A stretch of 28,515 nucleotides of DNA from Eubacteriales bacterium (GTDB lineage: Bacteria > Bacillota > Clostridia > Acetivibrionales > STF1-152), in contig JAQVNH010000001.1 in assembly GCA_028703215.1 (NCBI GenBank), forward strand, positions 1-28,515, given 5' to 3'. Below, one piece after another: positions 1,581 through 20,473 of the stretch; within the stretch, counting starts at the first letter, position 1; each line of letters begins with the position of its first letter. The translations under genes were made by a program, and so were the position numbers. The notes under the pieces were generated by a model, which had not been told where the DNA came from, searched no databases, and worked only from the letters and a program-made list of their open reading frames with translations.

Positions 1581-2707
1581 AGAAGATAAAAAAAAGATTC
1601 TTTCAAAACGCAGGCTTTGCGAGTTTTTTATCATCCCTCACGGCAATCGGAATAGGTTTGATTTTTGGCCTGGTATTGCTGCTGCTCTTTAACCCGGCAA
1701 AAGCTTTTAACGGTTTTAGCCAGATATTGTTTGCGGGCGCAAGCACAATGGCAAAATTCGCCAAGGTTTTATACCAGGCTGCGCCCCTTATAATGACAGG
1801 TCTGTCAGTCGGCTTTGCTTTTAAAACAGGCTTATTTAATATCGGAGCCTCAGGACAATATCTCATGGGAGCATTCTTTGCGCTGTTCACAGGGATCGTT
1901 CTTAAACAGCCATGGTGGGTGGCCTTGTTCTCAGCAATGATGGGCGGGGCTTTGTGGGGAGCAATGCCGGGCATATTCAAGGCCTTTTTCAATGTGAATG
2001 AGGTTATTACATCGATAATGTTCAACTGGATAGGCTTATTTGCCGTAAATCTGACTCTCTCGAATATCCCGAGCATTCTGGCTAATTACTACGGCGCTTC
2101 CAGCGCAGAAAGAACCGCAGTTTTAGGAGCTGCTAATCCTTCTGCGATGATTCCGAAAATGGGGCTCGATAAAATATTCGGCGCTTCTTATATCAATATC
2201 AGTATTTTCCTTACGATTTTGATCGCAGTCATCGCGTATATTGTTCTTAATAAAACCACATTCGGGTATGAGCTCAAAGCTTGCGGATATAACCGGAATG
2301 CCAGCATCTATGCCGGTATCAACGCAAAGCGCAATATAGTTTTTTCCATGGTTATAGCAGGCGCATTTTCGGGAATTGGCGGCGGAGTTTACTACCTAAG
2401 CGGTACGGCGCAGTACACCATTGAGAAGATTCTCCAGGCAATGGGCTTTAACGGGATACCTGTCGCGCTGCTGGCAACTTCAAATCCTCTTGGCACGATC
2501 TTAAGTGCTTTGTTTGTTTCATATATTCAGGTTGGCGGAGAGGCAATGCAGCCTGAATTTGCAAAGGAAATTATCGATATCATCATTTCGGTCATTATCT
2601 ACCTTAGTGCTTTCTCGCTCTTATTCAAAGGGCTGATAACTAAGTTTTTGAGTAAGAACAAACCCGAATATGCGGATGAGGAGGAAAGCGGGGAGGTGGC
2701 GTCATGA
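1577..2707 (+). CDS. Nucleoside ABC transporter permease (NupB/YufP-like)
   Basis: Polytopic hydrophobic protein with motifs GLFNIGASGQ, VNEVITSIMFNWI and GYELKACGYNRNASIYAGIN; overlaps both neighbours by 4 bp. Confidence 0.88.
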   Translation: MKKIKKRFFQNAGFASFLSSLTAIGIGLIFGLVLLLLFNPAKAFNGFSQILFAGASTMAKFAKVLYQAAPLIMTGLSVGFAFKTGLFNIGASGQYLMGAFFALFTGIVLKQPWWVALFSAMMGGALWGAMPGIFKAFFNVNEVITSIMFNWIGLFAVNLTLSNIPSILANYYGASSAERTAVLGAANPSAMIPKMGLDKIFGASYINISIFLTILIAVIAYIVLNKTTFGYELKACGYNRNASIYAGINAKRNIVFSMVIAGAFSGIGGGVYYLSGTAQYTIEKILQAMGFNGIPVALLATSNPLGTILSALFVSYIQVGGEAMQPEFAKEIIDIIISVIIYLSAFSLLFKGLITKFLSKNKPEYADEEESGEVAS

Positions 2708-3696
2708 TAGTCCTTGCAGATATTTTAAGCGCAACGCTGATTTTTGCAATACCCTTGCTTCTGGTAGCGCTGGGCGGCATGTTCAGCGAACGGAGCGGCA
2801 CCGTCAACATAGCGCTTGAAGGTATCATGATCATAGGCGCGCTATCCAGCTCTCTTTATCTCAAATTCGCAAATACATCCGGATTCGGCGCTGCCAATCC
2901 CCAGCTTGCGATGCTGATCGCAGTTATTGTGGCGGCATTTTCCGGTGTCATATACGCCCTGCTGCTCGCTTTTGCGGCAGTGAGCCTTAGAGCGGACCAG
3001 ACCATCGGCGGCACAGCGCTTAATATGCTTGCGCCTGCGTTTGCCATAGTTCTGACATGGGCTATACAAGGCCAGGGGCAAACCACGATATATATTCCGA
3101 CATGGATAAGAATAACCCCGGAAGCGTTTGGGCTTGCAAGAAGCCAGAACCCGGCTTTTTTTGAAGCGCTGATATTCAAGAACTTTTACCTTACAACGCC
3201 GATAGCCTTTTTACTTCTTGCGGTTGCCGTCATCCTGCTATATAAAACCAAATTCGGCCTGCGTCTCCGTTCTTGCGGCGAACATCCGCAAGCCGCGGAT
3301 TCCGTGGGAATAAACGTCTATAAAATACGGTATGTCGGCGTTATGATGTCCGGTTTTCTTGCAGGTATCGGCGGACTCGCGTATACTATAGCTGCCGGCT
3401 CCGGATTTCAGTCAACTGTTTCAGGGTATGGCTTCCTGGCATTGGCTGTAATGATTTTCGGCAACTGGAAACCTGTCAGGATCTTCGGCGCAGCTATGTT
3501 TTTTGCGCTTTTCAAGGTGATAGGCTCATACAGCGGGAGTTTATCCTTCCTGCCGAGTTTTTCAGGGATCAAGAATTCTCAGTATATATACCAAATGCTC
3601 CCCTATATCGTGACGATGATTGTTCTGGTATTCACATCCGGCAAGTCCCGTGCCCCCAAGGCCGAAGGCATTCCGTATGATAAAAGCAAAAGGTGA
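2704..3696 (+). CDS. Nucleoside ABC transporter permease (NupC/YufQ-like)
   Basis: Motifs GGMFSERSGTVNIALEG, GLRLRSCGEHPQAADSVGIN and GFLALAVMIFGNWKP; C-terminal APKAEGIPY typical of this family. Confidence 0.88.
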   Translation: MIVLADILSATLIFAIPLLLVALGGMFSERSGTVNIALEGIMIIGALSSSLYLKFANTSGFGAANPQLAMLIAVIVAAFSGVIYALLLAFAAVSLRADQTIGGTALNMLAPAFAIVLTWAIQGQGQTTIYIPTWIRITPEAFGLARSQNPAFFEALIFKNFYLTTPIAFLLLAVAVILLYKTKFGLRLRSCGEHPQAADSVGINVYKIRYVGVMMSGFLAGIGGLAYTIAAGSGFQSTVSGYGFLALAVMIFGNWKPVRIFGAAMFFALFKVIGSYSGSLSFLPSFSGIKNSQYIYQMLPYIVTMIVLVFTSGKSRAPKAEGIPYDKSKR

Positions 3697-3861
3697 GCGA
3701 TGATATTCGATTTTGTGCCGGGTATGAAAAGCAATTCTCCGCAAGCGAGAAAATAAATTCCCGGATTCAGGAAAAGTAATTTGTCTGTATGCAGGAAAAC
3801 ATATGATCAGGAAGGCGAATTGGCTTCACGCAAGAAAACTAAATTGACCGGGGAGAAACTT

Positions 3862-4461
3862 ATGGCAAAATTATACTATAAATACGGCGCTATGGGCAGC
3901 AGCAAGAGCGCGCAGGCTCTGATAGCCAAGTTCAACTACGAAGAGCGCGGCATGAGGGTGTGGCTGATCAAACCCTCTGCCGACACGCGCGACGGAGAAA
4001 TAATGATCCGGTCACGCATAGGTCTTGAATCCCCGGCAGAAAAAATCACCCCGGAAACGAATTTGCTTGCCCGTTTCAAAGAACTTTATCCGCTTAAATT
4101 GGATGTTGTCATTGCCGATGAATGCCAGTTTTTTGAACCCGCTCATATTGACGCTCTGCGGACGATCGTTGACGATTACTCAACGCCTGTGCTTTGTTTC
4201 GGTCTTCGTACAGATTTTCTGACCCATCTTTTCCCCGGAAGCAGACGTCTTTTCGAACTGGCTGACTCTATCTCGGAACTCAAAACAATATGCGAATGCG
4301 GCAGTAAAGCTACTGTGAATGCGCGCTACGGGACTGATGGTAAAATAATCACGAGAGGCGAGCAGGTATATCTGGGGGGCAATGAGAGCTACATCGCAAT
4401 GTGTCATAAATGCTGGAGGAATAAAATAAAAGAGCAGACGGAAAACGAGGGAAAATCTTGA
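3862..4461 (+). CDS. tdk: Thymidine kinase (type II), 199 aa
   Basis: P-loop YGAMGSSKS, Walker B IADECQF, GLRTDF motif, zinc site CECG...CHKC. Start placed at ATG 3862 because GGGAG lies at 3851-3855; the track's TTG at 3781 has no homologous N-terminus. Confidence 0.93.
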   Translation: MAKLYYKYGAMGSSKSAQALIAKFNYEERGMRVWLIKPSADTRDGEIMIRSRIGLESPAEKITPETNLLARFKELYPLKLDVVIADECQFFEPAHIDALRTIVDDYSTPVLCFGLRTDFLTHLFPGSRRLFELADSISELKTICECGSKATVNARYGTDGKIITRGEQVYLGGNESYIAMCHKCWRNKIKEQTENEGKS

Positions 4462-4478
4462 AATAATAGGAGAAAACA

Positions 4479-5147
4479 ATGGATATAAAAGAAATTTTAA
4501 GCAAGGTAGATCACACCAACCTGGTTCCCGGCGCGACCTGGACTGACATCAAATCTCTTTGTGATGAAGGCATTGAATACGGTTGCGCAAGCGTGTGCAT
4601 CCCCCCATCTTTCGTCAGGAAAGCAAGCGAATATGTAAGCGGATCTCTTAAAATATGCACAGTAATAGGATTTCCGAACGGTTACAGCGCTACTGCCGTA
4701 AAATGCTTTGAAACTGAGCAGGCAGTGCGCGATGGAGCCGATGAGATCGACATGGTCATCAATAACGGCATGGTAAAAAGCGGCAGATACAAGGAAATCC
4801 TCGAAGAAATCAAAGCAGTCCGTTGTTCCTGCGGCAACAGAATATTGAAGGTCATAGCAGAGGCCTGCCTTCTTACCTATGAGGAAAAAGTAAAAATTTG
4901 CGAAATCGTATCTGCTTCAGGCGCGGATTTTATCAAGACATCAACGGGCTTTTCTACCGGCGGGGCTACTCGAGAGGATGTAAGGTTGTTCCGCGAAAAG
5001 ATCGCGCCTCATGTTAAAATCAAAGCTGCGGGCGGAATAAGAAGTCTCGCCGATGCGGAGGATTTTATAAGACTTGGCGCAGAAAGGCTCGGAACCAGTT
5101 CGATCGTAAAAATAGTCAAGGGGATGGGCGCCTCGCAATCATATTAA
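4479..5147 (+). CDS. deoC: Deoxyribose-phosphate aldolase
   Basis: Motifs VDHTNL, VIGFPNG, DEIDMVIN, LKVIAE, FIKTSTGF (Schiff-base Lys) and IKAAGGIR; AGGAG RBS upstream. Confidence 0.95.
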   Translation: MDIKEILSKVDHTNLVPGATWTDIKSLCDEGIEYGCASVCIPPSFVRKASEYVSGSLKICTVIGFPNGYSATAVKCFETEQAVRDGADEIDMVINNGMVKSGRYKEILEEIKAVRCSCGNRILKVIAEACLLTYEEKVKICEIVSASGADFIKTSTGFSTGGATREDVRLFREKIAPHVKIKAAGGIRSLADAEDFIRLGAERLGTSSIVKIVKGMGASQSY

Positions 5148-5164
5148 AAAAGACAGGTGAAACC

Positions 5165-5572
5165 ATGGAACATAAAAAGCTTGTAAAATCAGCCATACAG
5201 GCAATGGCAGGAGCATATGTGCCATATTCCGGATTCAAGGTCGGCGCTGCTCTGCTTACGAAAAGCGGAAAAGTCTACACCGGATGTAATATTGAAAACG
5301 CGGCTTTTTCTCCCTCAAATTGCGCCGAGCGAACCGCTTTTTTCAAGGCTGTCAGCGAAGGGGAAAAGGAATTTGCCGCAATTGCGATTGTCGGCGGCCT
5401 TGAAGGCAAAATCAAGGAATACTGCCCCCCCTGCGGTGTTTGCAGACAAGTGATGAGTGAATTTTGTGCTGATGATTTCATTATCATACTCGGCAAGGAA
5501 GATGACGAATATAAAAGCTATACACTTGCCGAGCTTCTGCCGTTAAGGTTTTCAGAAAAAGATATCAGGTAA
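5165..5572 (+). CDS. cdd: Cytidine deaminase (homotetrameric type)
   Basis: AYVPYSGFKVGAAL, GCNIENA, CAERTA and PCGVCRQ zinc motifs. Confidence 0.95.
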   Translation: MEHKKLVKSAIQAMAGAYVPYSGFKVGAALLTKSGKVYTGCNIENAAFSPSNCAERTAFFKAVSEGEKEFAAIAIVGGLEGKIKEYCPPCGVCRQVMSEFCADDFIIILGKEDDEYKSYTLAELLPLRFSEKDIR

Positions 5573-5600: not shown

Positions 5601-5632
5601 AAAAAAGCGGACGATTTCTGTCCGCTTTTTTT
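5601..5632. terminator. Bidirectional intrinsic terminator between convergent cdd and the LarA-like gene
   Basis: aaaaaa-GCGGAC-gatttct-GTCCGC-ttttttt: perfect 6-bp GC-rich stem flanked by an A-tract and a T-tract. Confidence 0.85.
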
Positions 5633-6896
5633 ATTCTGCGATCCAAAGTCCAAGTGCCGGGTTGCTTATGTAAAATATCCTCTCTCCGCTTTCAAGAGTA
5701 TTGTACCCGTCCTTAAGCTTCGACGGATCATATTTCACGATCGTCTTATCATAGGGAGCATATTTATAATATACGCTTTCGATCTCTTCTTTGGAAATAT
5801 TTTGGGCGGCATAGGTTATACTGAACCTTCCGTCCGAAGATCCGTGTATCAGATGTGCCGCTACCGAAAGATTATTTTTCAGATCTTCTTTTTCGCTGAC
5901 AAGTTTGAGTACTTTTTCACGTCCCGCATAGCCATATTTTCTGATAAGCCTGTCGTTTTCAGGATCTTCGCCAAACTTCTTTATGCCCGGGGCAAGAACA
6001 ATAAGCTCACCGCCTGTTTTGATGGCCATCCTGGTCCTGTAAACCGCTTTATTCCCGAGCCATGTGCTTTTGAACTCCTTTTCGTCAAGTAAAACAACAA
6101 CCTTTTCAAATGGTTCGCTTACATAAATCAGATTTTTCTTTTGACTGAGCTTGACTGCCTCCTCAAATATTTTGCGCTTCCGCCCCGCAAACAAACCGTG
6201 GATAACTGCTCTGCCGTGTTCTGCGGTAGTTACTGTCAGAACGTACATCAGAGGGATTTCCGCCAGGAAGTACTCTTCGGCGTAGTCGAATACCTTCCGG
6301 ACAGGCGAATGGTCCTTCCCCATTATCCGCTCCATTCCGTAAAAGGCGCCAAGCATATGCGAGCTGTTGATCATGCTGCTTCCGCCGCATCCTACAAATA
6401 CATTCTTACTGTAGTTTGCCATTCCCACAACTTCGTGAGGAACAACCTGTCCGATCGAAATTATAAGATCGTATATCGGATCAAGAATGCGTTTGTTCAA
6501 TTCCACATCTATGCAATTATTGACCAGACCCTCGGATATTTCACAGACATATTCCGCGGGCACTTCTCCGATCTTCACGACATCTGTTTTCCAGTTATGG
6601 ACAATGAATCTGTCCAAAGGGATTTTATCTCCGTACATTTCTCTGATTTCCGGTTCGGACATGGGGTCATGTGTGCCAAGCGCCGGAAGTATGTCGACAA
6701 CGCAATCGGTTTTTAACATTTCATAATACATGGCCGTTATCTTTCCGGCCTGCGAATGAAATCTTGTGAAATCCGGAGGGATAAGCAGCACTTTTTTGAG
6801 AGGTCCCTTATCTGAAAGCGATTCCTTGAGACGCTTTCTCAGCTCTATATCGCTTATTCCCTTTGCGGTAGTTGCTTTTACATAAATTTCGCCCAT
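5631..6896 (-). CDS. LarA-superfamily (DUF2088) nickel-pincer-dependent 2-hydroxyacid epimerase; probable D-mannonate/D-gluconate 2-epimerase (GntE-like)
   Basis: LarA-like motifs in order: PDFTR (Asp/Arg), ALGTH (catalytic His), PHEVVGMANYSKN (His plus cofactor Lys), NSSH (Ni-ligand His), LGNKA (second Lys). RBS AGGAAGGAG. Substrate is inferred from the uxuB/gnd context. Confidence 0.75.
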   Translation of the reverse strand: MGEIYVKATTAKGISDIELRKRLKESLSDKGPLKKVLLIPPDFTRFHSQAGKITAMYYEMLKTDCVVDILPALGTHDPMSEPEIREMYGDKIPLDRFIVHNWKTDVVKIGEVPAEYVCEISEGLVNNCIDVELNKRILDPIYDLIISIGQVVPHEVVGMANYSKNVFVGCGGSSMINSSHMLGAFYGMERIMGKDHSPVRKVFDYAEEYFLAEIPLMYVLTVTTAEHGRAVIHGLFAGRKRKIFEEAVKLSQKKNLIYVSEPFEKVVVLLDEKEFKSTWLGNKAVYRTRMAIKTGGELIVLAPGIKKFGEDPENDRLIRKYGYAGREKVLKLVSEKEDLKNNLSVAAHLIHGSSDGRFSITYAAQNISKEEIESVYYKYAPYDKTIVKYDPSKLKDGYNTLESGERIFYISNPALGLWIAE

Positions 6897-6936: not shown

Positions 6937-8388
6937 TCAAGCCGTATATGTCGTTGAAGCGGTGCCCCCGCCAAGTCCTGCCCAGTCAGTATGAAAAAAC
7001 TCGCCTCTCGGCTTGTCTGTTCTTTCATATGTGTGAGCCCCGAAATAGTCGCGCTGCGCCTGAAGCAGATTTGCCGGAAGCCGGTCATTTCTGTAGCCGT
7101 CAAAGTAGCAAAGAGCTGTCGTAAAGGCAGGCACCCAGATACCGTTCGTCATAGCTGTTGAAACGACTCTTCTCCACCCTTCCTGGGCAGCTTCTATTTT
7201 GTCCTTGAAGAAGTCATCAAGAAGAAGGTTCTCAAGACCCGGATTTTTATCAAACGCTTCCTTTATCTTGCCCAGGAACACCGACCGTATGATGCATCCG
7301 CCTCTCCACATCAAAGCTACTCCGCCGTAGTTGAGATTCCAGCCGTATGTTTTTGCCGCTGCCCTCATGAGTGTGTACCCCTGGGCATAAGACACGATTT
7401 TTGAGGCATAAAGCGCTTCCCGGATATCTTCGACAAAAGCCTTCTTATCACCTGTAAATTTGGGCTTTGGTCCTTTTAATATCCCGGACGCTTTGACTCT
7501 TTCCTCTTTCATAGCTGACAGACAGCGGGCGAAAACAGCTTCTCCGATAAGTGTCAATGGTATCCCCTCATCGAGTGCGGCTACGGCCGTCCATTTCCCG
7601 GTGCCCTTTTGTCCGGCTGTGTCCAGTATTTTATCTATCAGATAACCTCCGTCATTATCCTTGTAAGCAAGAATGTCCCGCGATATCTCTATAAGGTAGC
7701 TGTTAAGATTTCCTTTGTTCCATTCGCTGAAAACCTCATGCATTTCGTCGTTGCTCATCCCCAAAAGATCCTTCATGAGCTGGTATGCCTCGCATATAAG
7801 CTGCATGTCGCCGTATTCGATACCGTTATGCACCATTTTTACAAAATGGCCGGCTCCGTTTTCTCCCACCCATTCGCAGCACGGGGAACCGTCCTCGACT
7901 TTTACGCTAATACCCTGAAAAATCGGTCTGACATGAGCCCATGCCGCCGGAGAACCTCCCGGCATCATGCTCGGCCCCCTCAGCGCTCCCTCTTCTCCCC
8001 CTGAGACTCCGGTCCCAACGTAAAGAAGCCCTTTGCTCTCAACATATTCCGTTCTGCGTATCGTGTCCGGGAAGTGGGAATTTCCGCCGTCGATTATTAT
8101 GTCTCCCGCTTCAAGATAGGGAAGGAGCTTTTCAATGAAATCATCAACAGGCTTGCCTGCCTTGACCATCAGCATTACTTTCCTGGGTCTCTCAAGCGAG
8201 CCGACCAGTTCCTCTATCGAAAAAGCTCCGATTATATTTTTCCCGGCCGCGCGGCCTTCAACAAATGCCTTCACCTTTTCGGTCGTGCGGTTATAAACAG
8301 CAACGGTAAAGCCCTTGCTCTCCATGTTCATGACCAGATTCTCGCCCATGACTGCAAGTCCTATAAGTCCGATATCAGCTTTTTTCAT
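6937..8388 (-). CDS. gnd: 6-phosphogluconate dehydrogenase, decarboxylating, NADP-dependent, 483 aa
   Basis: GLIGLAVMG Rossmann motif, YNRT (NADP-specific Arg), IIDGGNS, VSGGEEGA, VKMVHNGIEYG, QAQRDYFGAH. Start at ATG 8388 with GAGG RBS. Confidence 0.96.
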   Translation of the reverse strand: MKKADIGLIGLAVMGENLVMNMESKGFTVAVYNRTTEKVKAFVEGRAAGKNIIGAFSIEELVGSLERPRKVMLMVKAGKPVDDFIEKLLPYLEAGDIIIDGGNSHFPDTIRRTEYVESKGLLYVGTGVSGGEEGALRGPSMMPGGSPAAWAHVRPIFQGISVKVEDGSPCCEWVGENGAGHFVKMVHNGIEYGDMQLICEAYQLMKDLLGMSNDEMHEVFSEWNKGNLNSYLIEISRDILAYKDNDGGYLIDKILDTAGQKGTGKWTAVAALDEGIPLTLIGEAVFARCLSAMKEERVKASGILKGPKPKFTGDKKAFVEDIREALYASKIVSYAQGYTLMRAAAKTYGWNLNYGGVALMWRGGCIIRSVFLGKIKEAFDKNPGLENLLLDDFFKDKIEAAQEGWRRVVSTAMTNGIWVPAFTTALCYFDGYRNDRLPANLLQAQRDYFGAHTYERTDKPRGEFFHTDWAGLGGGTASTTYTA

Positions 8389-8396
8389 GATTTTCC

Positions 8397-9470
8397 TCAC
8401 CTTCTGACCCTGGCGTTTCCCCGCCAGATGTCCCATACTTGCTCTTCGTCCACAGGCACCGCATAGTCAGTCAGCATCGTGGTTGCAAGAGCTCCTGTCG
8501 CCCATCCGAAACGAAGCCATTTTTCAGGCTCCCAGCCCTTCAGTATCCCATATACGAGCCCTCCCACGAAACCGTCTCCGCCGCCGATTCGGTCAAGCAC
8601 AGGTATCTCGCGCGGTTCCTCGATATGCCATTTATCGCCCTCAAGCATTATTGCCCCCCAAACATGGCTGTTTGCGCTGACTACCTCGCGAAGCGTTGTG
8701 GCAAATACCGAAGCTCCTGGGTACTGAGCCTTTACTCTGCGTATCATTTCCTTAAAGCTCCCGGTTTTTGCAGAAAGGTCTTTTCCTCCCGCCTCCGGAC
8801 CCTCTATGCCCAAAGCAAGCTGAAAATCCTCTTCGTTTCCTACAAGAATATCCGCACGTCCTGCGATCTGCCGGAATGTATCGCTCAATTCCTCTTCTCT
8901 GCCCTTCCAGAAAGAAGCTCTGTAATTCAGGTCAAAACAAACAAGCGTCCCGTTTTGTTTTGCTATCCTCGAAAGCTCAAGGCACACAGCTCCGTTCTCC
9001 GGGGACATTGCCGCAAATAAGCCCGACATGTGAACGATCGCTACGCCTTCCCGCGCGAAGATTTTCTCGAGGTCAAAATCAGTGACTTCCAATGTCTTTC
9101 CAACTTCTCCGGCGCGGTCATTATGAACTCTTGGCCCCCTCATCCCGAATCCGCTGTCAGCGATATTGAACTGATGCCTGTATCCCCAGGGCCCGCCCTG
9201 CGGGACGTCCCTTCCCTCAAACTCAAGATTCCTCTTCCTCATCTCATCCTTGATAAATTGAGAAATCGGGCTGTCCTTGACAAATCTTGTCAGAATTTTT
9301 ACTCTCATCCCGAGCGACGCCGGGATATTCCCGACATTGCTTTCTGCGCTTGTCGCGTGCATGAAATAAGTGTTGCTGACATGCACCGGCTGTCTTTCTG
9401 CAGGTGTGATCCGGACACCCATGCTGGTCGGAATGACCATGGCGTATTTGTAATTTTCTTTTAATTTCAT
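8397..9470 (-). CDS. PfkB/ribokinase-family sugar-acid kinase (KdgK-related but atypical N-terminus)
   Basis: C-terminal anion hole DRIGGGDGF, DLNYRASFW, GNEEDF and N-DRA motif typical of KdgK-like kinases. The N-terminal substrate region reads TSMGVRITP and TSAESNV instead of GE..LRL and GGAEANV. Confidence 0.8.
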   Translation of the reverse strand: MKLKENYKYAMVIPTSMGVRITPAERQPVHVSNTYFMHATSAESNVGNIPASLGMRVKILTRFVKDSPISQFIKDEMRKRNLEFEGRDVPQGGPWGYRHQFNIADSGFGMRGPRVHNDRAGEVGKTLEVTDFDLEKIFAREGVAIVHMSGLFAAMSPENGAVCLELSRIAKQNGTLVCFDLNYRASFWKGREEELSDTFRQIAGRADILVGNEEDFQLALGIEGPEAGGKDLSAKTGSFKEMIRRVKAQYPGASVFATTLREVVSANSHVWGAIMLEGDKWHIEEPREIPVLDRIGGGDGFVGGLVYGILKGWEPEKWLRFGWATGALATTMLTDYAVPVDEEQVWDIWRGNARVRR

Positions 9471-9533
9471 GTCGATATCCTATCCTTTGTTATGTATTTT
9501 AATCGATCAACTTACAATTGCTATATTGATATG

Positions 9534-9562
9534 ATTATATAATATTAAATCTGTTGTTTCAT
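9534..9562 (-). promoter_or_regulatory. Putative sigma-A promoter of the kinase-gnd-epimerase operon
   Basis: Minus strand ATGAAA (9562-9557), 17-bp spacer, TATAAT (9539-9534), in an AT-rich divergent intergenic region. Confidence 0.45.
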
Positions 9563-9603
9563 CTCTTTTTTGCTGTTTTTGCTCTCGGTTTATTCAAAAT
9601 CGT

Positions 9604-9633
9604 TTGCTCCGGATCATTTATTCGTTGTATAAT
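9604..9633 (+). promoter_or_regulatory. Putative sigma-A promoter of uxuB
   Basis: TTGCTC (9604-9609), 18-bp spacer, TATAAT (9628-9633), 35 bp before the start codon. Confidence 0.5.
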
Positions 9634-9668
9634 GTGGTCACACACTTGTGTTTTTAGGGGGTTTGGAT

Positions 9669-11285
9669 ATGAAACTTTCTGCAATCAAGATTGGCGATGA
9701 CCGTGAATGGATCGATAAAGGATATGGACTTGTGAAATTTGACAGGGACTCCGTTATAAAGAACACCTCTGAAAATCCTGAGTGGGTTCATTTCGGCCCC
9801 GGCAACATTTTCAGATCCTTCATCGCCCTGCTTCAGCAGGAGCTGCTGGAAAGAGGTATCGAAAAGAAGGGTATTATAGTAGCCGAAGGATATGATCATG
9901 AGATCATAGAAAAAATTTATCGCCCCAAAAATAATTTATCGCTTGCCGTAACACTGCATGCCGACGGCTCGATCGACAAAACCGTTGTCGGAAGCATTAC
10001 TGAATCTCTTATAATGGATACGGAGCTTCCGGACTGGGAAAGGCTTAAACATATATTCAGGTCAGAAACACTTAAAATGGCAAGCTTCACCATCACTGAA
10101 AAGGGCTATAATCTCAAAAATCAGAACGGGGAATATTTCCCCTTTGTTCAAAGCGATCTTATCGGAGGACCGGCGAAGCCGCAGGGCTATATGGGCAAGG
10201 TCGCCGCTTTATGTTACGAAAGATATCTGGCCGGGAAGCTTCCGATTTCCTTTGTAAGCATGGACAACTGCTCGCACAATGGCACAAGGCTTTTTGAGGC
10301 GGTCGATACGATTTCCGGTGAATGGGAAAAAAGCGGTTTAGTCCGGGAAGGTTTCCGGGAATATGTCAACGATAAAAGCAAGGTCGGCTTCCCGTGGAGC
10401 ATGATTGATAAAATAACGCCGCGTCCCGATGAGAAGGTCGTTGAGATGCTTCGCGCGGACGGATTTGAGGACACCGATATCGTTGTGACTGCAAAGGGCA
10501 GTTATGTGGCGCCTTTTGTCAACGCAGAAGAAACGCAGTATCTTGTGATCGAAGAATGGTTCCCGAACGGGCGCCCGAAACTGGAAAAAGCCGGTGCAAT
10601 ATTTACCGACAGAACCACTGTCGAAAAGGTTGAAAAAATGAAGGTTTGCACCTGTTTGAACCCCCTTCACACAGCCCTTGCGATCTATGGCTGTCTGCTC
10701 GGGCACAAGCTGATCTGGGAGGAGATGAAGGATCCGGATCTTAAAAAAATGGTCGAGATCATCGGCTACAGGGAAGGTCTGCCTGTTGTTGTAGATCCCG
10801 GGATCATGGACCCCCGGGAATTTATCGATACAGTATTGAACGTTAGATTTCCGAATGTTTTTATGCCGGACTCGCCGCAAAGGATTGCAACCGATACCTC
10901 TCAAAAGCTGGCAATTCGCTTTGGAGAAACCATCAAAGCCTATCTTAAGAGTGATTCTCTGTCTGTAAAGGATCTTAAAATAATTCCGCTGGTCTTTGCG
11001 GGATGGTGCAGATATATACTGGGCGCTGATGACAGCGGATCACCGTTTACGCCAAGCGGAGACCCGCTTTTGGCAGATATCCGCAATCACCTTGGAGATA
11101 TACGTCTTGGAGATGCCGGAAGTTTTCACAAACAGCTTTATCCGATATTTTCCAATGCATCTATTTTTGGGGTTGACCTCTACGAATCCAGTCTTGGCGA
11201 GGTAGCTGAAGGCTATTTCTCAGAACTGGTCGCAGGTAAAGGCGCGGTAAGACGCACACTTAAGAAATATGTTTCTGAAGTGTAG
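9669..11285 (+). CDS. uxuB: Mannitol-dehydrogenase-family oxidoreductase, long type; probable D-fructuronate reductase / D-mannonate oxidoreductase, 538 aa
   Basis: WVHFGPGNIFRS nucleotide-binding motif, FTITEKGY, VSMDNCSHNG, WSMIDKITPRP, EKMKVCTCLNPLHT. Start at ATG 9669 after AGGGGG. Substrate is inferred from family and context. Confidence 0.75.
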   Translation: MKLSAIKIGDDREWIDKGYGLVKFDRDSVIKNTSENPEWVHFGPGNIFRSFIALLQQELLERGIEKKGIIVAEGYDHEIIEKIYRPKNNLSLAVTLHADGSIDKTVVGSITESLIMDTELPDWERLKHIFRSETLKMASFTITEKGYNLKNQNGEYFPFVQSDLIGGPAKPQGYMGKVAALCYERYLAGKLPISFVSMDNCSHNGTRLFEAVDTISGEWEKSGLVREGFREYVNDKSKVGFPWSMIDKITPRPDEKVVEMLRADGFEDTDIVVTAKGSYVAPFVNAEETQYLVIEEWFPNGRPKLEKAGAIFTDRTTVEKVEKMKVCTCLNPLHTALAIYGCLLGHKLIWEEMKDPDLKKMVEIIGYREGLPVVVDPGIMDPREFIDTVLNVRFPNVFMPDSPQRIATDTSQKLAIRFGETIKAYLKSDSLSVKDLKIIPLVFAGWCRYILGADDSGSPFTPSGDPLLADIRNHLGDIRLGDAGSFHKQLYPIFSNASIFGVDLYESSLGEVAEGYFSELVAGKGAVRRTLKKYVSEV

Positions 11286-11294
11286 CTGCGTAAA

Positions 11295-11651
11295 TCAATA
11301 AAGCTTTGTTTCTTCCTTTTGAACTTTTCTCAGCCATTCGCTGTCATGCGCGGGTTTCTGGTATTCCCACGTCCTTATCCATTCGTCCCATATTTCAGGC
11401 TGGGTGACAAACGTATCAAACTCGATTTCTATTTCTTTTGCCCGGATCGCGTCATTTGATGTCGAGGGGGCTATATCAAACATATTTATGGAACTGTAAT
11501 AAGTGAGTATCCTGAGAACAAAATCACTCAGGATCTCCGCGCTGTCTTCCTCTGGAGCCGATCCTTTCCCGGTCAGTTCCTTGTGCATCGAACGGCCGAT
11601 CTTGATTGCCATCCGTTTGTTGAATTCTTCGATATCATCCTTTATCGCCAT
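11295..11651 (-). CDS. Hypothetical protein, 118 aa, acidic and Trp-rich C-terminal half
   Basis: AGGAG RBS 7 nt before ATG; 36 bp downstream of the previous gene on the same strand; no recognisable family. Confidence 0.7.
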   Translation of the reverse strand: MAIKDDIEEFNKRMAIKIGRSMHKELTGKGSAPEEDSAEILSDFVLRILTYYSSINMFDIAPSTSNDAIRAKEIEIEFDTFVTQPEIWDEWIRTWEYQKPAHDSEWLRKVQKEETKLY

Positions 11652-11687
11652 TATGCATCTCCTAGTCTTTTGTATTTATAATTCAAA

Positions 11688-12803
11688 CTACCTCTTAAAA
11701 ATAAGATAAATTATTATAAATGCAAGTATAAATGCTGCCATAGTTCCCGCAACCTTCAGCAGACTGACCGGCGTTTCTCCCTGGACATTTCCGGTCTGTC
11801 CGTTTACCATAAACCTATAGATCTTCTTTTTATATGTGAATGCTGAGATCCAGACAGGCAGTAAAACGTGCTTGAATTTAATTGTTTTGCAAATCGTGTT
11901 GATGCTCAGATTCCTGACCTCATCGGCCCGGATTTGATCGATGACGCCCTTATAGATCTCTGAATCAACTTTTTTTCTCGCTTTCAGCCATCCTTCTTCG
12001 AGCCCTATGCCGTATCTTTCCGCTTGAAATCCCGAGAGGTATTCCGGTTTATAGAGAACAAGCTTTTTCATGTCAAAATTATGCAATTTGTTAATAATGT
12101 TTTCTTCTATGTTTTTTGACGCGTTGACCGGAATTTCATCAAAATATTCTGTATATACTCCGCTTGTCGGTCTCCATCGGATCTGCCTGACCTGCTTTGT
12201 AACCATTTGTTGTTTGCCGTTTACTTTCGCCCAGCCGTTTTGCGTTTCATAATAGTATTCTCCGGCTTCTCCCGAATATGCCGACCATGTGTCGGCGTCA
12301 TATGTCCAGAAAGGCACATAAACACCGTTGAGCCGAACCGCTTTGTGTTCTATTTTTACATCGCGCGGCGCGAAAAATTTGCCTTTCAGCCATTTGGAAT
12401 AATTTTCAGCCGCCTTTTTGAAACTTATCAGAAACGGTATCAGCGACTCCGGTGGAATACCTGCGGATTCTATGCTTTTTGTAACATGCGCGGATCCGCA
12501 AAAAGCGCACGACTGAGCAGTGTTGAATACATCAAGAACTGTTCCGGCTCCGCAGTTCTGACAATGCATCACTCTCGTTTCACTTCCCCAGTTTCCGGCG
12601 CTTGTATCCTTGGCTGTAAAGAAGTCGTGTTCCTCTATGTGTCCGTCCTTCGCTGCTATTTCAACGCTTTTTGAGCAATATCCGCATGTAAGTGTTTGTG
12701 TTTCCGGATTAAAAGTCATATTTGCGCCGCAGCTCGGGCAGGGAAAATTGTTTGTCTCTTCCCTTATTATCTGTTCCGGCTTATCGTTAATATCCTGTGT
12801 CAA
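11688..12803 (-). CDS. Zinc-ribbon membrane protein (YdjG-like) with C-terminal transmembrane helix
   Basis: Two four-Cys ribbons (CPSCG..CGYC, CQNCG..CAFCG), conserved-looking LPVWISAFTY and FMVNGQTGNVQG, hydrophobic C-terminal helix ending in KR. Start placed at TTG 12803, 7 nt from GGAGG (the track's GTG at 12809 abuts the RBS). Confidence 0.7.
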   Translation of the reverse strand: MTQDINDKPEQIIREETNNFPCPSCGANMTFNPETQTLTCGYCSKSVEIAAKDGHIEEHDFFTAKDTSAGNWGSETRVMHCQNCGAGTVLDVFNTAQSCAFCGSAHVTKSIESAGIPPESLIPFLISFKKAAENYSKWLKGKFFAPRDVKIEHKAVRLNGVYVPFWTYDADTWSAYSGEAGEYYYETQNGWAKVNGKQQMVTKQVRQIRWRPTSGVYTEYFDEIPVNASKNIEENIINKLHNFDMKKLVLYKPEYLSGFQAERYGIGLEEGWLKARKKVDSEIYKGVIDQIRADEVRNLSINTICKTIKFKHVLLPVWISAFTYKKKIYRFMVNGQTGNVQGETPVSLLKVAGTMAAFILAFIIIYLIFKR

Positions 12804-12826
12804 GGTCACCCCTCCGCTCAGCTCAT

Positions 12827-13957
12827 CTATACTATCTGTTTACCGCAGTCAGGACAGAACTTGACTCCTTTGTTGACGGCAGCGCCGCAATTGCTGCACT
12901 TTATTTCCGGTTCCTGCTCCGCGCCGCAGTCGGGGCAGAATTTCTTTCCCTTTTGAATATCGGCGCCGCACTTGACACATTTTACCATCTCGCCGCTCAA
13001 CGGCTTGCCGCAAGCGCTGCAGAACTTGCGTCCGGCATCTGTTTCCTGTCCGCATGACGGACATATTACCCTGGCCTCCTGCTGCTTCGGGGCAGTATTG
13101 GCACCAAGAGTCTCCGCCATCATCTTCCCTATGGCTGCGCCGGCGCCTATTCCGGCACCCGCTGATGCAAGGCCGCCTCCCGGATTGTTCGCCGCTTCCC
13201 TTATCGCTTCAGCGGTCTGATACTGTGCATATTTCCCCATATCTCCGATAACACCCATAGAGGTTCTCTTGTCCAGAACCTTTTCCACTTCTTCCGGAAG
13301 CGAAATATTTTCTATGTAAAATGAAACAAGCTCAAATCCAAATTTATCAAACATCGGCTTGAGCTTTTCTCTGGATTGTTCGCTGAGCTCGTCATAGTAC
13401 ATCGCAAGATCTATGGCGGGCGTCTTTGTTTCTCCCAGAAGATCGCTTATCCCGGATACAATAGCCCTTTTCAGTTGACCTGTTATGCTTTCTGTCGTGA
13501 ATTCGCTGCTGGTTCCGAAAACCTCTTTAAGAAAAACCGAGGGGTTGTTTACTTTGAATGAATATATTCCGAAAGCGCGCAGACGAAGCATTCCAAATTC
13601 CGCATCCCTCATCATAACGGGATTTGACGTCCCCCACTTTTGGTCTGTGAATTGCTTTGTATTTACAAAATACACTTCGGCCTTAAACGGGGATATAAAT
13701 CCATATTTCCAGGATTTGATCTTTGTAAGGATCGGCATGTTTTGCGTCGATAGGGTATATCTCCCTGGAGAAAATACATCGGCTATCTGCCCCTCGTTAA
13801 CAAAAACGGCAGCCTGTGATTCTCTTACTGTAAGCTGCGCGCCCATTTTGATTTCCCTGCCCTGGACAGGAAAATTATAAACCATTGTATCTGTGGTGCT
13901 GTCCGTCCATTCAATGACTTCAATAAACTGGCTCTTGATAAAATCAAATAAACCCAC
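12827..13957 (-). CDS. SPFH/band-7-like protein (YdjI-like, 'virion core' type) with three C-terminal zinc ribbons, 376 aa
   Basis: N-terminus MGLFDFIKSQFIEVIEW, LTVRESQAAVFVNEG, KWGTSNPVMMRD, LRAFGIYSF, Gly/Ala-rich linker, three CxxCG-x9-FCxxCG repeats. Start at GTG 13957, 8 nt from GAGGGG. Confidence 0.8.
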   Translation of the reverse strand: MGLFDFIKSQFIEVIEWTDSTTDTMVYNFPVQGREIKMGAQLTVRESQAAVFVNEGQIADVFSPGRYTLSTQNMPILTKIKSWKYGFISPFKAEVYFVNTKQFTDQKWGTSNPVMMRDAEFGMLRLRAFGIYSFKVNNPSVFLKEVFGTSSEFTTESITGQLKRAIVSGISDLLGETKTPAIDLAMYYDELSEQSREKLKPMFDKFGFELVSFYIENISLPEEVEKVLDKRTSMGVIGDMGKYAQYQTAEAIREAANNPGGGLASAGAGIGAGAAIGKMMAETLGANTAPKQQEARVICPSCGQETDAGRKFCSACGKPLSGEMVKCVKCGADIQKGKKFCPDCGAEQEPEIKCSNCGAAVNKGVKFCPDCGKQIV

Positions 13958-14002
13958 AAATATCACCCCTCTTATAAGGTATTTAAAAATAACTGCGTTT
14001 TA

Positions 14003-14032
14003 ATTATACCATGATTTAGTTTTGCGGCACAA
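14003..14032 (-). promoter_or_regulatory. Putative extended -10 sigma-A promoter for the SPFH operon, overlapping the phoR 3' end
   Basis: Minus strand TTGTGC (14032-14027), 18-bp spacer, TGG-TATAAT (14011-14003). Confidence 0.55.
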
Positions 14033-15716
14033 AACTTCGCGGGAATAAAATGCTTATGGTGGTTCCTTTACCCGGATCGCTTTCGAGTTTGACTTCCGCT
14101 TTGTGATATTTTGCGCCATGCTTGACTATCGACAGGCCAAGACCTGTGCCGCCGGTTTCTTTCGAATGGCTTTTTTCCACTCTGTAAAATCTTTCAAAAA
14201 CTCTGTCGTGGTGCTTTGCGGGGATTCCTATTCCGGTATCGGTGACTTTGAACAGAACTCCTTGTTCGCTGACAGTCACATTGATTTCCGCTTTCCCGTT
14301 CGCATTGTTATATTTGATAGCATTTTCGCAAAGATTGAATATCATTTCATCAAGGATCTGCCTGACTCCTTTTATCACAGCGCTTTCTCCGGTCACTTTC
14401 AAAATGACTCCCTTTTTGTCTGCGGCTGGTTTGAGTCTCTCCGATACATTCTGAGAAAGCAAATACAGATCTATATCCTCTTGGGGGATATCCACATTCC
14501 CCTCATCAAGCCGTGATATTTTGATAATGTCTTCAATCAGCTTAACAAGGCGGTCCGCTTCACTGTATATCCTGCCGGCGAGTTCAGGCACATCCTTATT
14601 CTTTACGAGCCCGTCTTTCATGATTTCAGCAAAGCCCAATATAGATGTCAAAGGTGTTTTGAGCTCATGGGATACATTTGCCGAAAACTCGCGTCTCATT
14701 TTCTCAGCCGCCATTTTTTCAGTTACATCCAATACCAAAAGTACTATCCCTTTTTCCGCTCCCTTTGCCGTTACAGGGCTTCCCAGTATCTGATATTGTT
14801 TTCCATTCGCTGAAATTATAGCTTCTCCTGTGTTTCCTCCCACAGTTTCCTCAACAACAGCTTGCATTTCCGCGCTTCTGTTCACTGTAAGGATATGCTT
14901 GTTTAAATAATCATCACCTTTTACGTTAAACAGTTTGCGCGCGCTGCTGTTTATTGAAAGGATGTTTGAGTTGTTGTCAAGAATGATCAGCCCTTCTCTC
15001 ATATTTTGAGTGATGGCAGAAAATTCTTCCTGCTTTTCTTTAAGCTCTTCCATTTGATGTTTTAACAGCATATTTTGTCTTTCTATGCGGACAAGAAGAG
15101 TGGAGAATTCGTCGTAAATATCATTATTGGAAGGTTCTTCAAGATCGATTTCATTTATCGGGTCAACGATTTTTTTTGTCTGCCAATTCGCCAGTCCCAA
15201 TCCCAGAACAAAAACTGCAGTCCCGATAAGCAGGAGGTAAGGCACTGTATTGAATACGACCGCGTAAACACTTTTGATCTCATTAGCGACGCGAAGGATA
15301 TTTCCATTCTTAAGAAGAACAGCATAGTAATAATTCTGTTTCCCCAGTGTGTCAGATACCCTGGTGCTTTCTCCGGTTCCTTTTTCTGCTGCGCCTATGA
15401 CCTCGGGCCTGTTCAGGTGATTATCCATCGAATCTATCTTTGTCAAGGAATCATACAGGACTACCCCTTCGGCAGATATAAGCGTTATGCGGTTAATGTA
15501 TTCGTTTTCGTTTCCTTCAAGCAAATATCCGCCGCCTGTTTTATCCAGCATCTCAGCCAGCATCGACGCTTCATCCTTTACATCCTGCTTCATGACATTA
15601 TAAAAAGTATTATATATCACAGTTGAAACAAGAATAGACGTTAGCAATAGAGTAACTCCGGCAAGAACAGACATATTCTTGAATATTCTGCTCTTAAGTT
15701 CGCCTTGCCGCTTCAT
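14016..15716 (-). CDS. phoR: Phosphate regulon sensor histidine kinase with PAS-like domain
   Basis: Two TM segments, H-box EFSANVSHELKTPLTSI, N-box NLCENAIKYN, G1 DTGIGIP, F-box FERFYRV, G2 GGTGLGLSIVKH; last gene of the pst-phoU-RR operon. Confidence 0.88.
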   Translation of the reverse strand: MKRQGELKSRIFKNMSVLAGVTLLLTSILVSTVIYNTFYNVMKQDVKDEASMLAEMLDKTGGGYLLEGNENEYINRITLISAEGVVLYDSLTKIDSMDNHLNRPEVIGAAEKGTGESTRVSDTLGKQNYYYAVLLKNGNILRVANEIKSVYAVVFNTVPYLLLIGTAVFVLGLGLANWQTKKIVDPINEIDLEEPSNNDIYDEFSTLLVRIERQNMLLKHQMEELKEKQEEFSAITQNMREGLIILDNNSNILSINSSARKLFNVKGDDYLNKHILTVNRSAEMQAVVEETVGGNTGEAIISANGKQYQILGSPVTAKGAEKGIVLLVLDVTEKMAAEKMRREFSANVSHELKTPLTSILGFAEIMKDGLVKNKDVPELAGRIYSEADRLVKLIEDIIKISRLDEGNVDIPQEDIDLYLLSQNVSERLKPAADKKGVILKVTGESAVIKGVRQILDEMIFNLCENAIKYNNANGKAEINVTVSEQGVLFKVTDTGIGIPAKHHDRVFERFYRVEKSHSKETGGTGLGLSIVKHGAKYHKAEVKLESDPGKGTTISILFPRSFVPQN

Positions 15717-16387
15717 TTTACTCCCCCGATCCTGTACCCTATCCCCCGCACTGTTTCGATTTCGCTCCCGTGATCGCCCAATTTCTGCCTTAAGCTGCGG
15801 ATATGGACATCAACGGTGCGTGTTTCTCCACCGAAATCGTATTCCCATACCTTCTCTAGCATTTTGTCGCGCGTGATCACAAGTCCCTCGTTTTCCATCA
15901 AGTATCTGAGTATTTCGAATTCTTTTGGCGTAAGCTGAACCTTTCTTCCGGCTGCTTCAACGCAATGCCTTTGCGAATCCAATGCGATTCCGTTTATAGT
16001 TATTTCTTTCCGCAATGATTTTGGTCTTGCCCTGCGCAAAACCGCCCTGATTCTTGAAACCAGTTCCATCATCCCGAAAGGTTTGGCCACATAATCGTCA
16101 GCGCCGCCATCAAGGCCTACGATTTTATCATACTCGGAATTTTTTGCCGTTATTATTATTACCGGGATATCTTTTGTTTCAGAATTTGATTTCAGCCTTT
16201 TAAGGATAGAAATCCCATCCTCTCCGGGAAGCATTATGTCAAGGAGCACAAGCTCCGGCAGCATTCTGTCCAGCGCTTCAAAGAGAAGTTCTCCTCCCGG
16301 GAAGCCTTCGGCTTCGATATCTGTTGCTTTTAAAGTGTATAATATGAGCTCCCTTATGCTGTTGTCGTCTTCTACGCAGTAGATCAC
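15713..16387 (-). CDS. phoP: OmpR/PhoB-family response regulator, 224 aa
   Basis: VEDD, phospho-acceptor LLDIMLPG, TAK, ADDYVAKPF, winged helix RTVDVHIRSLRQKL and VRGIGY. GTG start at 16387 overlaps the phoU stop (GTGA). Confidence 0.88.
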   Translation of the reverse strand: MIYCVEDDNSIRELILYTLKATDIEAEGFPGGELLFEALDRMLPELVLLDIMLPGEDGISILKRLKSNSETKDIPVIIITAKNSEYDKIVGLDGGADDYVAKPFGMMELVSRIRAVLRRARPKSLRKEITINGIALDSQRHCVEAAGRKVQLTPKEFEILRYLMENEGLVITRDKMLEKVWEYDFGGETRTVDVHIRSLRQKLGDHGSEIETVRGIGYRIGGVK

Positions 16388-17037
16388 AGATCTGCCTCTC
16401 CCTTGTGAACTCCCGTGATGGAATATTCGACCCATTCGGCGATATTTGTCGCATGATCGCCGATACGTTCGAAATATTTGGCTATCAGCAGCATATCTAT
16501 GGCATATTCGCTTTTTTTCTTATCAACCGTGCAGGTATGTACAAGCTCCTTTTTTACTTCGTCAAATAAATTGTCCACTATGTCGTCATATGCTATTACT
16601 TCTCGTGCCAGTTCAAGGTCTTGTTTTACAAAAGCGTCAACACTGTCTGTCACCATCTTGATCGTTGCTTCGGCCATTTCATCTATGTGTGTGGTATTGT
16701 CTGAAGATGTGATGTTTTCAAGCATGACTATCTCTGCTATGTCTGCTGCCTGATCTCCTATCCTCTCCATATCCGTTATCATTTTGAGCGCGGAGGAAAT
16801 TTGTCTTAAATCTTTAGCTACCGGCTGCTGCTGAAGCAGCAATCTGAGACATAAATTTTCGATCGTTTTTTCTTTTCTGTCAATATCCATATCGATGTTG
16901 ATAGCCATTTTAGCAGGTTTGAAGTCGCCTTCCGTCAGTGCCTTGATAGAGTTTGATATTGCCGCTTCGCAAAGGGACCCCATTTTTATGAGCTCGGTAT
17001 TCAGCTTCTCAAGCTGTTCATCAAACTTGCTTCTCAT
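16384..17037 (-). CDS. phoU: Phosphate signalling complex protein PhoU
   Basis: Repeated motifs QQPVAKDLR..DMERIGDQAADIA and YFERIGDHATNIAEWV. ATG 17037 is 8 nt from GGAGG; GTG 17040 is an alternative start. Confidence 0.93.
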   Translation of the reverse strand: MRSKFDEQLEKLNTELIKMGSLCEAAISNSIKALTEGDFKPAKMAINIDMDIDRKEKTIENLCLRLLLQQQPVAKDLRQISSALKMITDMERIGDQAADIAEIVMLENITSSDNTTHIDEMAEATIKMVTDSVDAFVKQDLELAREVIAYDDIVDNLFDEVKKELVHTCTVDKKKSEYAIDMLLIAKYFERIGDHATNIAEWVEYSITGVHKGEADL

Positions 17038-17786
17038 CACCCGAACCTCCCAGTAATATAATCCTCGGTACGTTTGTCTTCCGGCATGGAAAAGAGTTTT
17101 TCTGTAAGTCCGTATTCAATAATTTCACCGATCAGGAAGAAAGCGGTATTGTCTGAGATCCGCGCAGCCTGCTGCATGTTGTGAGTTACTATGATAATAG
17201 TATAATCTTTCTTCAAATCAACGACAAGGTCTTCGATTTTTGATGTGGAAATAGGGTCCAGCGCTGATGTCGGCTCATCCATGAGCAATACCTCCGGTTG
17301 AACGGCAAGCGCGCGCGCTATGCAAAGCCTTTGCTGCTGACCTCCGGAAAGGCTCAGAGCGCTTTTTTTAAGGCGGTCCTTTACCTCATCCCATATGGCG
17401 GCATCCCGGAGCGACTTTTCAACTGTCTCGTCAAGTTTCATTTTGCTGTGAACGCCGTGTGTGCGAGGACCGAATGCAATATTATCATAAATACTCATCG
17501 GAAAAGGATTGGGCTTTTGAAAGACCATTCCGACGCGTTTTCTGAGAATATTAACATCCATGTCTCCGTAAATATCCTCGCCATCCAGGAGCACCTTTCC
17601 AGTGATCCGGCATCCCTCAATCAAATCATTCATACGGTTCAATGTTTTAAGCATAGTCGTTTTACCGCAGCCGGAAGGTCCTATAAAGGAAGTTATTTCA
17701 TGAGGGTTGATTCCAATGCCGACTTTTTTCAACGCCTGAACATCTCCGTAATAAAGATCAAGATTTTCTACCGTGAATTTATTCAT
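17037..17786 (-). CDS. pstB: Phosphate ABC transporter ATP-binding protein
   Basis: [53 protein letters not shown]-terminal YITGRFG. GTG 17789 is an alternative start. Confidence 0.95.
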
Positions 17787-19514: not shown

Positions 19515-19552
19515 ATTTTCAATTCCCTTTTAGGATATGACCAAACGGATCA

Positions 19553-20428: not shown

Positions 20429-20473
20429 TATTTTTCTCCTTTTTCCTCTTGTATTATCTATTTTCACAACACT

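Follow-up and report, generated by a model that had tools for sequence, protein, structure and literature searches.

For anaerobes living in guts, digesters and sediments, the uronic acids of pectin, hemicellulose and host glycans are a major source of carbon, and the textbook route for their use requires UxuA, KdgK and Eda. A 28,515-nt stretch of a Clostridia genome (Eubacteriales bacterium, assembly GCA_028703215.1, contig JAQVNH010000001.1), hereafter the window, encodes a PfkB-family kinase (8397-9470, minus strand) that resembles KdgK, the 2-keto-3-deoxygluconate (KDG) kinase of that route, and is followed by gnd, encoding the decarboxylating 6-phosphogluconate dehydrogenase, and by a gene for a LarA-family nickel-pincer enzyme of group 18 (LarAH18). 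The question raised by this arrangement is which sugar acid the kinase phosphorylates. Its relatives, their gene neighbourhoods and natural fusion proteins suggest that it is likely to be a hexonate 6-kinase, one member of a dehydratase-free shunt that leads from D-mannonate to 6-phosphogluconate and supplies the latter to Gnd.

The kinase and its clade

The region 8397-9470 is occupied by one open reading frame (ORF), read from 9470 down to a TGA stop codon at 8399-8397. Its product belongs to the PfkB/ribokinase superfamily by its Pfam score (PF00294, 66.8 bits against a gathering score of 25.8, the match being confined to residues 143-331 in the C-terminal half), a DxxGxGD anion hole with the catalytic Asp, an NxxE motif and its fold, whereas the N-terminal GG motif of the superfamily is lacking and TSAESN stands in its place. 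The ATP-binding and catalytic motifs, described as intact in the original prediction, could be read directly as GNEED and DRIGGGD. In an NCBIfam profile search the kinase came nowhere near the cut-off of any curated KdgK, IolC or fructokinase model. Three KdgK equivalogs gave 22 bits against 400 (NF052444), 96 against 440 (NF041332) and 45 against 400 (NF040938), and the top match, at 162 bits (cut-off 700), was to a model for Eda::sugar-kinase fusions, in its kinase half. The gluconokinase models TIGR01314 (FGGY) and TIGR01313 (P-loop) did not match it; since the kinase lies outside both families, any gluconate kinase activity that it possesses would reflect analogy and not descent.

Structural modelling, one of the checks named with the original prediction, established the fold but did not discriminate between substrates. 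The AlphaFold2 model (pLDDT 93.7) has a ribokinase-like alpha/beta fold with a beta-sheet lid, and its top Foldseek matches were all PfkB kinases, led by TM0067 KdgK (2afb; TM scores 0.85/0.92, 25% identity) and followed by other sugar-acid PfkB kinases. Judged from model and sequence together, the kinase is a KdgK-like scaffold in which the lid and hinge region appear remodelled.

The kinase has at least 8000 database relatives, and motifs were counted over the best 120 of them, which are 70-76% identical to it. All 120 contain [TS]S[MI]G[VIL]R and [TS]SAE[ST]N, which bears out the earlier reading of TSMGVR and TSAESN as replacements for GExxLR and GGxExN; all likewise contain FN[IV]AD and NDR, the latter where KdgK-like proteins have YDR, and have kept both GNEED and DRIGGGD, with E43, N45, G296, G298 and D299 invariant. 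The comparison motifs were seen where expected: TM0067 KdgK aligns GGAEAN opposite TSAESN, canonical Eda-linked KdgK has FGEIMLR and GGGEAN, and relatives at 25-35% identity have GE..LR, GG/SG..E.N and YDR, the same as TM0067. GG or SG at the TSAESN position occurs in outgroups only, and an exhaustive search of 50%-identity representatives yielded a handful of full-length proteins at 41-61% identity in which the motif is retained. In a maximum-likelihood tree, also among the checks proposed earlier, the 18 TS-motif sequences all fell into one clade (100/100 support, stem of 0.99 changes per site) nested among KdgK-like kinases. By sequence, then, the TS substitutions are a clade marker and not a product of chance, and together with NDR they are presumed to accommodate the C2 and C3 hydroxyls that KDG lacks. 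Members of this TS clade were detected in genome collections of five phyla (Bacillota, Bacteroidota, Spirochaetota, Ignavibacteriota and Chloroflexota) at 65-73% identity, and one is present in roughly one in ten of the genomes sampled from the window's class. Three divergent relatives (P0136, P0140, P0158) had uninformative contexts (a housekeeping neighbourhood, 2-kb contigs, a deoxy-sugar-acid cluster outside the clade) and were set aside.

Mislabelling of such proteins as kdgK, which had been anticipated, is borne out by current names: JGI calls relatives 2-dehydro-3-deoxygluconokinase, NCBI calls the orthologue of Thermoclostridium stercorarium KdgK, and others are named "sugar kinase".

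Genomic company of the TS clade

In the window, the kinase stop and the gnd start (ATG at 8388-8386, with GAGGA just before it) are separated by 8 bp, as first reported; the start at 8388 is preferred to that of the longest ORF (8436) because TIGR00873 aligns with the latter only from its residue 21 onwards. A further gap of 40 bp separates gnd from the LarAH18 gene. The same operon is found in T. stercorarium DSM 8532 (CP004044.1).

The context of the clade was surveyed by tblastn with seed proteins at 80 loci, one per species genome, 38 of which have at least 5 kb on either side of the kinase (counts for this subset follow in parentheses). A gnd gene lies near the kinase at 49/80 loci (27/38), LarAH18 at 41/80 (23/38), one or the other at 54/80 (27/38) and both at 36/80. 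The commonest gene upstream of the kinase encodes a protein above the cut-off of the D-mannonate oxidoreductase model, a short-chain dehydrogenase/reductase (SDR) present at 22/80 loci (14/38; NF006132, 382-451 bits). UxaC is encoded at 9/80 (6/38) and a reductase of the type seen in the window at 6/80 (4/38), including spirochaete loci where it stands directly upstream of the kinase in place of the SDR-type UxuB. Eda was detected at only 4/80 loci (3/38), two of the four having a canonical KdgK beside it, and UxuA at 0/80 (0/38). TSAESN homologues thus keep company with gnd, the epimerase and mannonate oxidoreductase, the reverse of the uxuA/eda association named at the outset as the pattern that would speak against an aldonate kinase. 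In Bacteroidota the order UxuB>kinase>LarAH18>..>gnd recurs.

Several further genes accompany the epimerase. A PHP-domain gene is found just upstream of gnd in four Clostridia loci (L017, L048, L068, L076), in at least two of them between LarAH18 and gnd, and a spirochaete LarA homologue is adjoined by a HAD gene (L118:518-1411). Bacteroidota and Ignavibacteriota loci (L013, L015, L029, L051, L055, L062, L063, L066, L074, L080) have a homologue of PdxB (4-phosphoerythronate dehydrogenase) between LarAH18 and gnd, sometimes with a Gfo/Idh/MocA oxidoreductase alongside; the L062 protein, taken as representative, exceeds the model cut-off (443 bits, cut-off 434). This homologue may belong to the pathway or simply be a housekeeping neighbour.

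Co-occurrence was counted in 200 genomes of the window's class, the counts ignoring kinship; Fisher p-values exaggerate the strength of the association, since related genomes are not independent samples. The kinase is present in 21 of these genomes and LarAH18 in 36, and all 21 kinase carriers have LarAH18, often unlinked. UxuA is depleted among carriers (three, plus one partial, of 21, against 89/200 overall), whereas Eda shows no association (15-16/21 against 135/200). In three Bacteroidales genomes with a solitary kinase, LarAH18 is encoded at another site, and two spirochaete carriers have instead a more distant LarA homologue with UxaE and a HAD hydrolase on its flanks; each of the 21 and of these five carrier genomes thus has a LarA-type epimerase. 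A replicate test in Bacteroidia found the kinase in 0/150 sampled genomes other than the centre, and the association is therefore drawn from one class sample and five hand-picked genomes.

The kinase also appears to be exchangeable. In 4 of the 15 genomes that have LarAH18 and lack the kinase, an FGGY kinase (best model gntK_FGGY, 241-430 bits, below the equivalog cut-off) lies next to LarAH18 or gnd, the other genes of the loci being the same; one such locus includes a UxaB-like tagaturonate reductase. Another genome (G041) holds three separate units, namely an eda-kdgK pair, a gnd-UxuB-LarAH18 operon and a TS-clade kinase, and its eda-linked KdgK (motif GGGEAN) scores 508 bits on the model that gives the window kinase 162.

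The genome of the window itself (G000; 1.2 Mb, 201 contigs, 88% complete) encodes UxaC, in a gene cut at a contig end, and LarC (PF01969, 472.8 bits), the protein searched for as a sign of nickel-pincer cofactor synthesis. Eda, UxuA, P-loop GntK and Zwf (glucose-6-phosphate dehydrogenase) were not found in this 88% of the genome, and its sole FGGY kinase is xylulokinase-like. With gnd present and Zwf not seen, no source of 6-phosphogluconate for Gnd is visible other than the kinase route.

Natural fusions link the same partners. Longer proteins containing a TS kinase include a reductase::kinase fusion (P0392, a cluster of 10 sequences) whose N-terminal half is 47% identical to the window reductase over its full length and whose C-terminal half is 61% identical to the window kinase; the products of two genes that lie divergently in the window are thus joined in one polypeptide elsewhere. 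Gnd::LarAH18 fusions form five clusters with 174 sequences in total (including P0273-P0276), and one was verified as a 906-aa ORF (L103:8042-10762, minus strand) with a complete Gnd (residues 10-483) and a LarAH18 domain (from residue 498), in a genome (G015) where the TS kinase, Eda and UxuA were not detected. Fusions of LarAH with a P-loop GntK/IdnK-type kinase make up dozens of clusters, and other LarAH partners are UxaE, a mannitol-dehydrogenase-family reductase and HAD, PHP and dihydrofolate reductase (DHFR)-like domains. The PHP::LarAH and HAD::LarAH proteins are P0280, P0286 and P0289-P0291, and this recurrence of phosphatase-type domains with the LarA epimerase hints that phosphorylated hexonates may be handled here. 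Proteins P0277, P0278, P0281-P0283 and P0288 (591-592 aa) combine a DHFR-family domain (PF00186) with a LarAH18-like domain 56-59% identical to the LarAH18 domain used as query; NCBI names one of them dihydrofolate reductase.

Substrate and order of reactions

These observations support the original prediction of a non-orthologous aldonate kinase, to the extent that genes can: gene contexts, the LarAH18 found in every carrier of the class sample, UxuA depletion, independence from Eda and the presence of a separate KdgK all point the same way. Since the clade travels with LarAH18 and Gnd, its substrate is most likely mannonate or gluconate. In the proposed shunt, UxaC would convert glucuronate to fructuronate, which would be reduced to D-mannonate by an SDR-type UxuB in most relatives and in the window by the mannitol-dehydrogenase-family enzyme, presumed to be a fructuronate-to-mannonate reductase. 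The ATP-dependent kinase and the nickel-pincer LarAH18 would then jointly turn mannonate into 6-phosphogluconate, which the co-transcribed Gnd would decarboxylate to ribulose-5-phosphate.

As to which of the two joint steps precedes, the fusions and gene order lean slightly towards mannonate as the substrate of the kinase. On balance it is tentatively suggested that the kinase may act first, on D-mannonate, and that LarAH18 would epimerize 6-phospho-D-mannonate at C2; a little more tentatively still, the TS-clade enzyme could be a dedicated D-mannonate 6-kinase and LarAH18 a 6-phospho-D-mannonate 2-epimerase. This leaning derives from the multi-member reductase::kinase and Gnd::LarAH18 fusions, the recurrent Bacteroidota gene order, the strict dependence of the kinase on a LarA-type epimerase, the HAD and PHP phosphatase domains found beside LarAH18 or within the same protein, and the Km values of 9.4-120 mM with which characterized GntE enzymes, members of LarA groups 15, 19 and 20, epimerize free mannonate (PMC7583248).

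The alternative order, in which LarAH18 makes D-gluconate from free D-mannonate and the kinase is a D-gluconate 6-kinase, is plausible, if rather doubtful. In that case the TS clade would be a third family of gluconate kinase, not homologous to the FGGY or P-loop GntK that it replaces. What the operon, co-occurrence and displacement show fits this order equally well. LarAH15, LarAH19 and LarAH20 epimerize free mannonate and gluconate in vitro, and LarAH18 has the same signature residues in the loop, alpha11 and alpha14, which weighs against placing the kinase first, as do several further points: the kinase slot is filled elsewhere by families with known gluconate kinases (the FGGY GntK-like enzymes and the P-loop GntK fused to LarAH in dozens of clusters), single-sequence fusions of reductase with LarAH (P0284) and of kinase with Gnd (P0393) suit an epimerase-first order, and fusions and gene order are in any case weak guides to reaction order. 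The gnd-uxaRED-gntEK cluster of T. maritima pairs GntE with an FGGY GntK (PMC3750489), and the distant LarA homologue of the two spirochaete carriers stands beside UxaE, as in Thermotoga. A plain gluconate kinase should, however, sometimes occur without an epimerase, yet every one of the 21 and the five carriers has one; the multi-member fusions would join non-consecutive steps; and free mannonate was not epimerized in Lactobacillus suebicus extracts.

That the kinase is an ordinary KdgK, as its database names have it, and is tied to gnd and LarAH18 by position only, seems very improbable, even though its nearest solved structure and its fold are those of TM0067 KdgK, its best NCBIfam match is the kinase half of the Eda fusion model, the substrate-contact residues of KdgK-like enzymes are kept (R20, N45, R119, R184, D299) and most carrier genomes have an Eda homologue. 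Against these stand its KdgK equivalog scores of 22-96 bits, far below cut-offs of 400-440, its 162 bits on the fusion model where a true Eda-linked KdgK reaches 508, the lack of UxuA and scarcity of Eda (half the time with its own KdgK) at the surveyed loci, the depletion of UxuA among carriers and the coexistence of both kinases in G041. Furthermore, five or six carrier genomes, that of the window included, show no Eda, and there 2-keto-3-deoxy-6-phosphogluconate would be a dead end; the gene absences in the window genome are provisional, given its 88% completeness, which tempers the case for a dehydratase-free shunt as well.

It is also unlikely, though less so, that the substrate is some other sugar acid, such as 2-keto-D-gluconate, D-altronate or L-gulonate/L-idonate, whose phosphate ester LarAH18 and/or a 2-hydroxyacid dehydrogenase would then turn into 6-phosphogluconate. 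In Thermus and Sulfolobus, KdgK-type enzymes accept 2-ketogluconate too (table quoted in PMC10339645), D-2-hydroxyacid dehydrogenases (the PdxB equivalog or PGDH-like proteins) recur beside LarAH18, the window reductase is only weakly UxuB-like and one displaced locus has the UxaB-like reductase mentioned above. The commonest upstream neighbour nevertheless exceeds the D-mannonate oxidoreductase cut-off, contexts with UxaC and UxaE indicate fructuronate and mannonate, and altronate epimerized at C2 is no route to a substrate of Gnd.

The wider window and known systems

The features of the kinase locus are collected in Table 1. The window reductase gave weak matches to the UxuB, UxaB and DalD models. 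Promoter and terminator scans were no better than shuffles, and the number of promoter sites in the divergent intergenic region was no higher than in shuffles.

Table 1. Coordinates of the kinase, its motifs and adjoining features in the window.
Feature	Position	Strand	Remarks
PfkB-family kinase, TS clade (P0001)	8397..9470	minus	357 aa; proposed hexonate 6-kinase
TSMGVR, first-strand motif, residues 15-20	9411..9428	minus	replaces GExxLR
TSAESN, residues 40-45	9336..9353	minus	replaces PfkB di-glycine motif GGxExN
GNEED, PfkB NxxE motif, residues 211-215	8826..8840	minus	
DRIGGGD, anion hole and catalytic Asp, residues 293-299	8574..8594	minus	
gnd, decarboxylating 6-phosphogluconate dehydrogenase	6937..8388	minus	TIGR00873, 777.7 bits against 426.7 cut-off
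LarA-family nickel-pincer enzyme, LarAH18	5631..6896	minus	putative hexonate 2-epimerase; NF052594, 646 bits against 500
Mannitol-dehydrogenase-family oxidoreductase	9669..11285	plus	divergent from kinase; PF01232 and PF08125; longest ORF from GTG 9648
Divergent intergenic region	9471..9668	.	one promoter-like site on minus strand, 9562-9534, consensus match only

Positions 3-5572 (plus strand) hold a nucleoside-salvage cluster with a sugar/nucleoside-type ABC ATPase, two permeases, tdk (thymidine kinase), deoC (deoxyribose-phosphate aldolase) and cdd (cytidine deaminase). On the minus strand, 11295-13966 encodes a 379-aa SPFH/Band-7 protein whose tail is a triple zinc ribbon, followed by proteins of 373 aa (faint zinc-ribbon match) and 118 aa (no family match), and 14016-20467 holds a phosphate-regulon block (PhoR-like histidine kinase, PhoB-like response regulator, PhoU, PstB, PstA and further pst ORFs). 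A pathway role for the nucleoside-salvage and phosphate-regulon neighbours was rejected, these genes, like the SPFH/zinc-ribbon gene, not being conserved beside the kinase elsewhere. Another contig of the same genome (C93, L081:1513-1911) carries a 132-aa ORF that matches only the C-terminal third of ribokinase-/fructokinase-type PfkB proteins and may be a truncated gene or an assembly fragment.

If the proposed function is correct, the TS clade marks genomes that bypass the UxuA/KdgK/Eda route and direct uronate carbon via 6-phosphogluconate to pentose phosphates, with an altered redox balance, ATP balance and set of fermentation products. Annotation of these enzymes as KdgK or generic sugar kinases would cause pathway reconstructions to predict a KDG route wrongly or to miss hexuronate use. 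The kinase would stand for a third gluconate kinase family, not homologous to the other two, or else for the first family of genes assigned to a mannonate kinase, and LarAH18, hitherto hypothesized to be a hexonate epimerase (PMC7583248), would gain a defined substrate. Should the kinase act first, gene families would be available for both of the activities reported by Valk et al. (2020), and it would be suggested that the GntE branch of the LarA superfamily acts physiologically on phospho-hexonates rather than on the free acids. A redox-neutral route is of stated interest for the engineering of pectin fermentation (PMC6978723).

A pathway of this type is already known; new would be the PfkB family in the kinase role and possibly the substrate, and what is added here is evidence on the kinase at the level of its clade, together with the fusions and the pattern of displacement. 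The searchable literature yielded no gluconate or mannonate kinase of the PfkB family, a mannonate kinase and 6-phosphomannonate each being mentioned in one paper only, and a C. thermocellum PfkB paper considered as a precedent was rejected, as it concerns a fructokinase. The closest counterpart is the gnd-uxaRED-gntEK route proposed for Thermotoga maritima, where GntE is LarAH20 and GntK an FGGY kinase (Rodionova 2012, PMC3750489, PMC7583248). There too hexuronate is converted to mannonate and a LarA-type epimerase and a kinase deliver 6-phosphogluconate to Gnd from clustered genes, whereas the window kinase is a PfkB protein and the window epimerase belongs to group 18 and not group 20. In L. 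suebicus extracts, mannonate kinase and 6-phosphomannonate epimerase activities were measured, in kinase-first order and with genes not identified; FGGY GntK homologues were the suspected kinases and no connection to LarA was drawn (Valk et al., 2020). The route from mannonate through 6-phosphogluconate to Gnd, independent of UxuA, KdgK and KdgA, is the same, and its kinase-first order fits the TS-clade fusions and gene order, although what was measured as activity there is predicted here from genes. In the LarAH::P-loop GntK/IdnK fusions (∼595-600 aa), to which NCBI gives the names gluconokinase or D-mannonate epimerase, an epimerase related to LarAH18 (46-53% identity) is likewise paired with a hexonate kinase of predicted function, but that kinase has a P-loop, shikimate-kinase-like fold and is fused to the epimerase, unlike the separate genes of the window. 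Finally, TM0067 KdgK (2afb) and other KdgK-type PfkB kinases (1v19, 2v78, 2dcn) resemble the window kinase in fold, in ATP, anion-hole and catalytic motifs and in the Arg, Asn and Asp residues that bind open-chain sugar acids. The window kinase differs from TM0067, at 25% identity, in having TS for the GG hinge, TSMGVR for GE..LR and NDR for YDR, and from KdgK generally in that the TS clade lacks linkage to eda or uxuA and coexists with a true KdgK in G041; it would phosphorylate the C6 hydroxyl of a C6 sugar acid with a KDG-like C4-C5 configuration.

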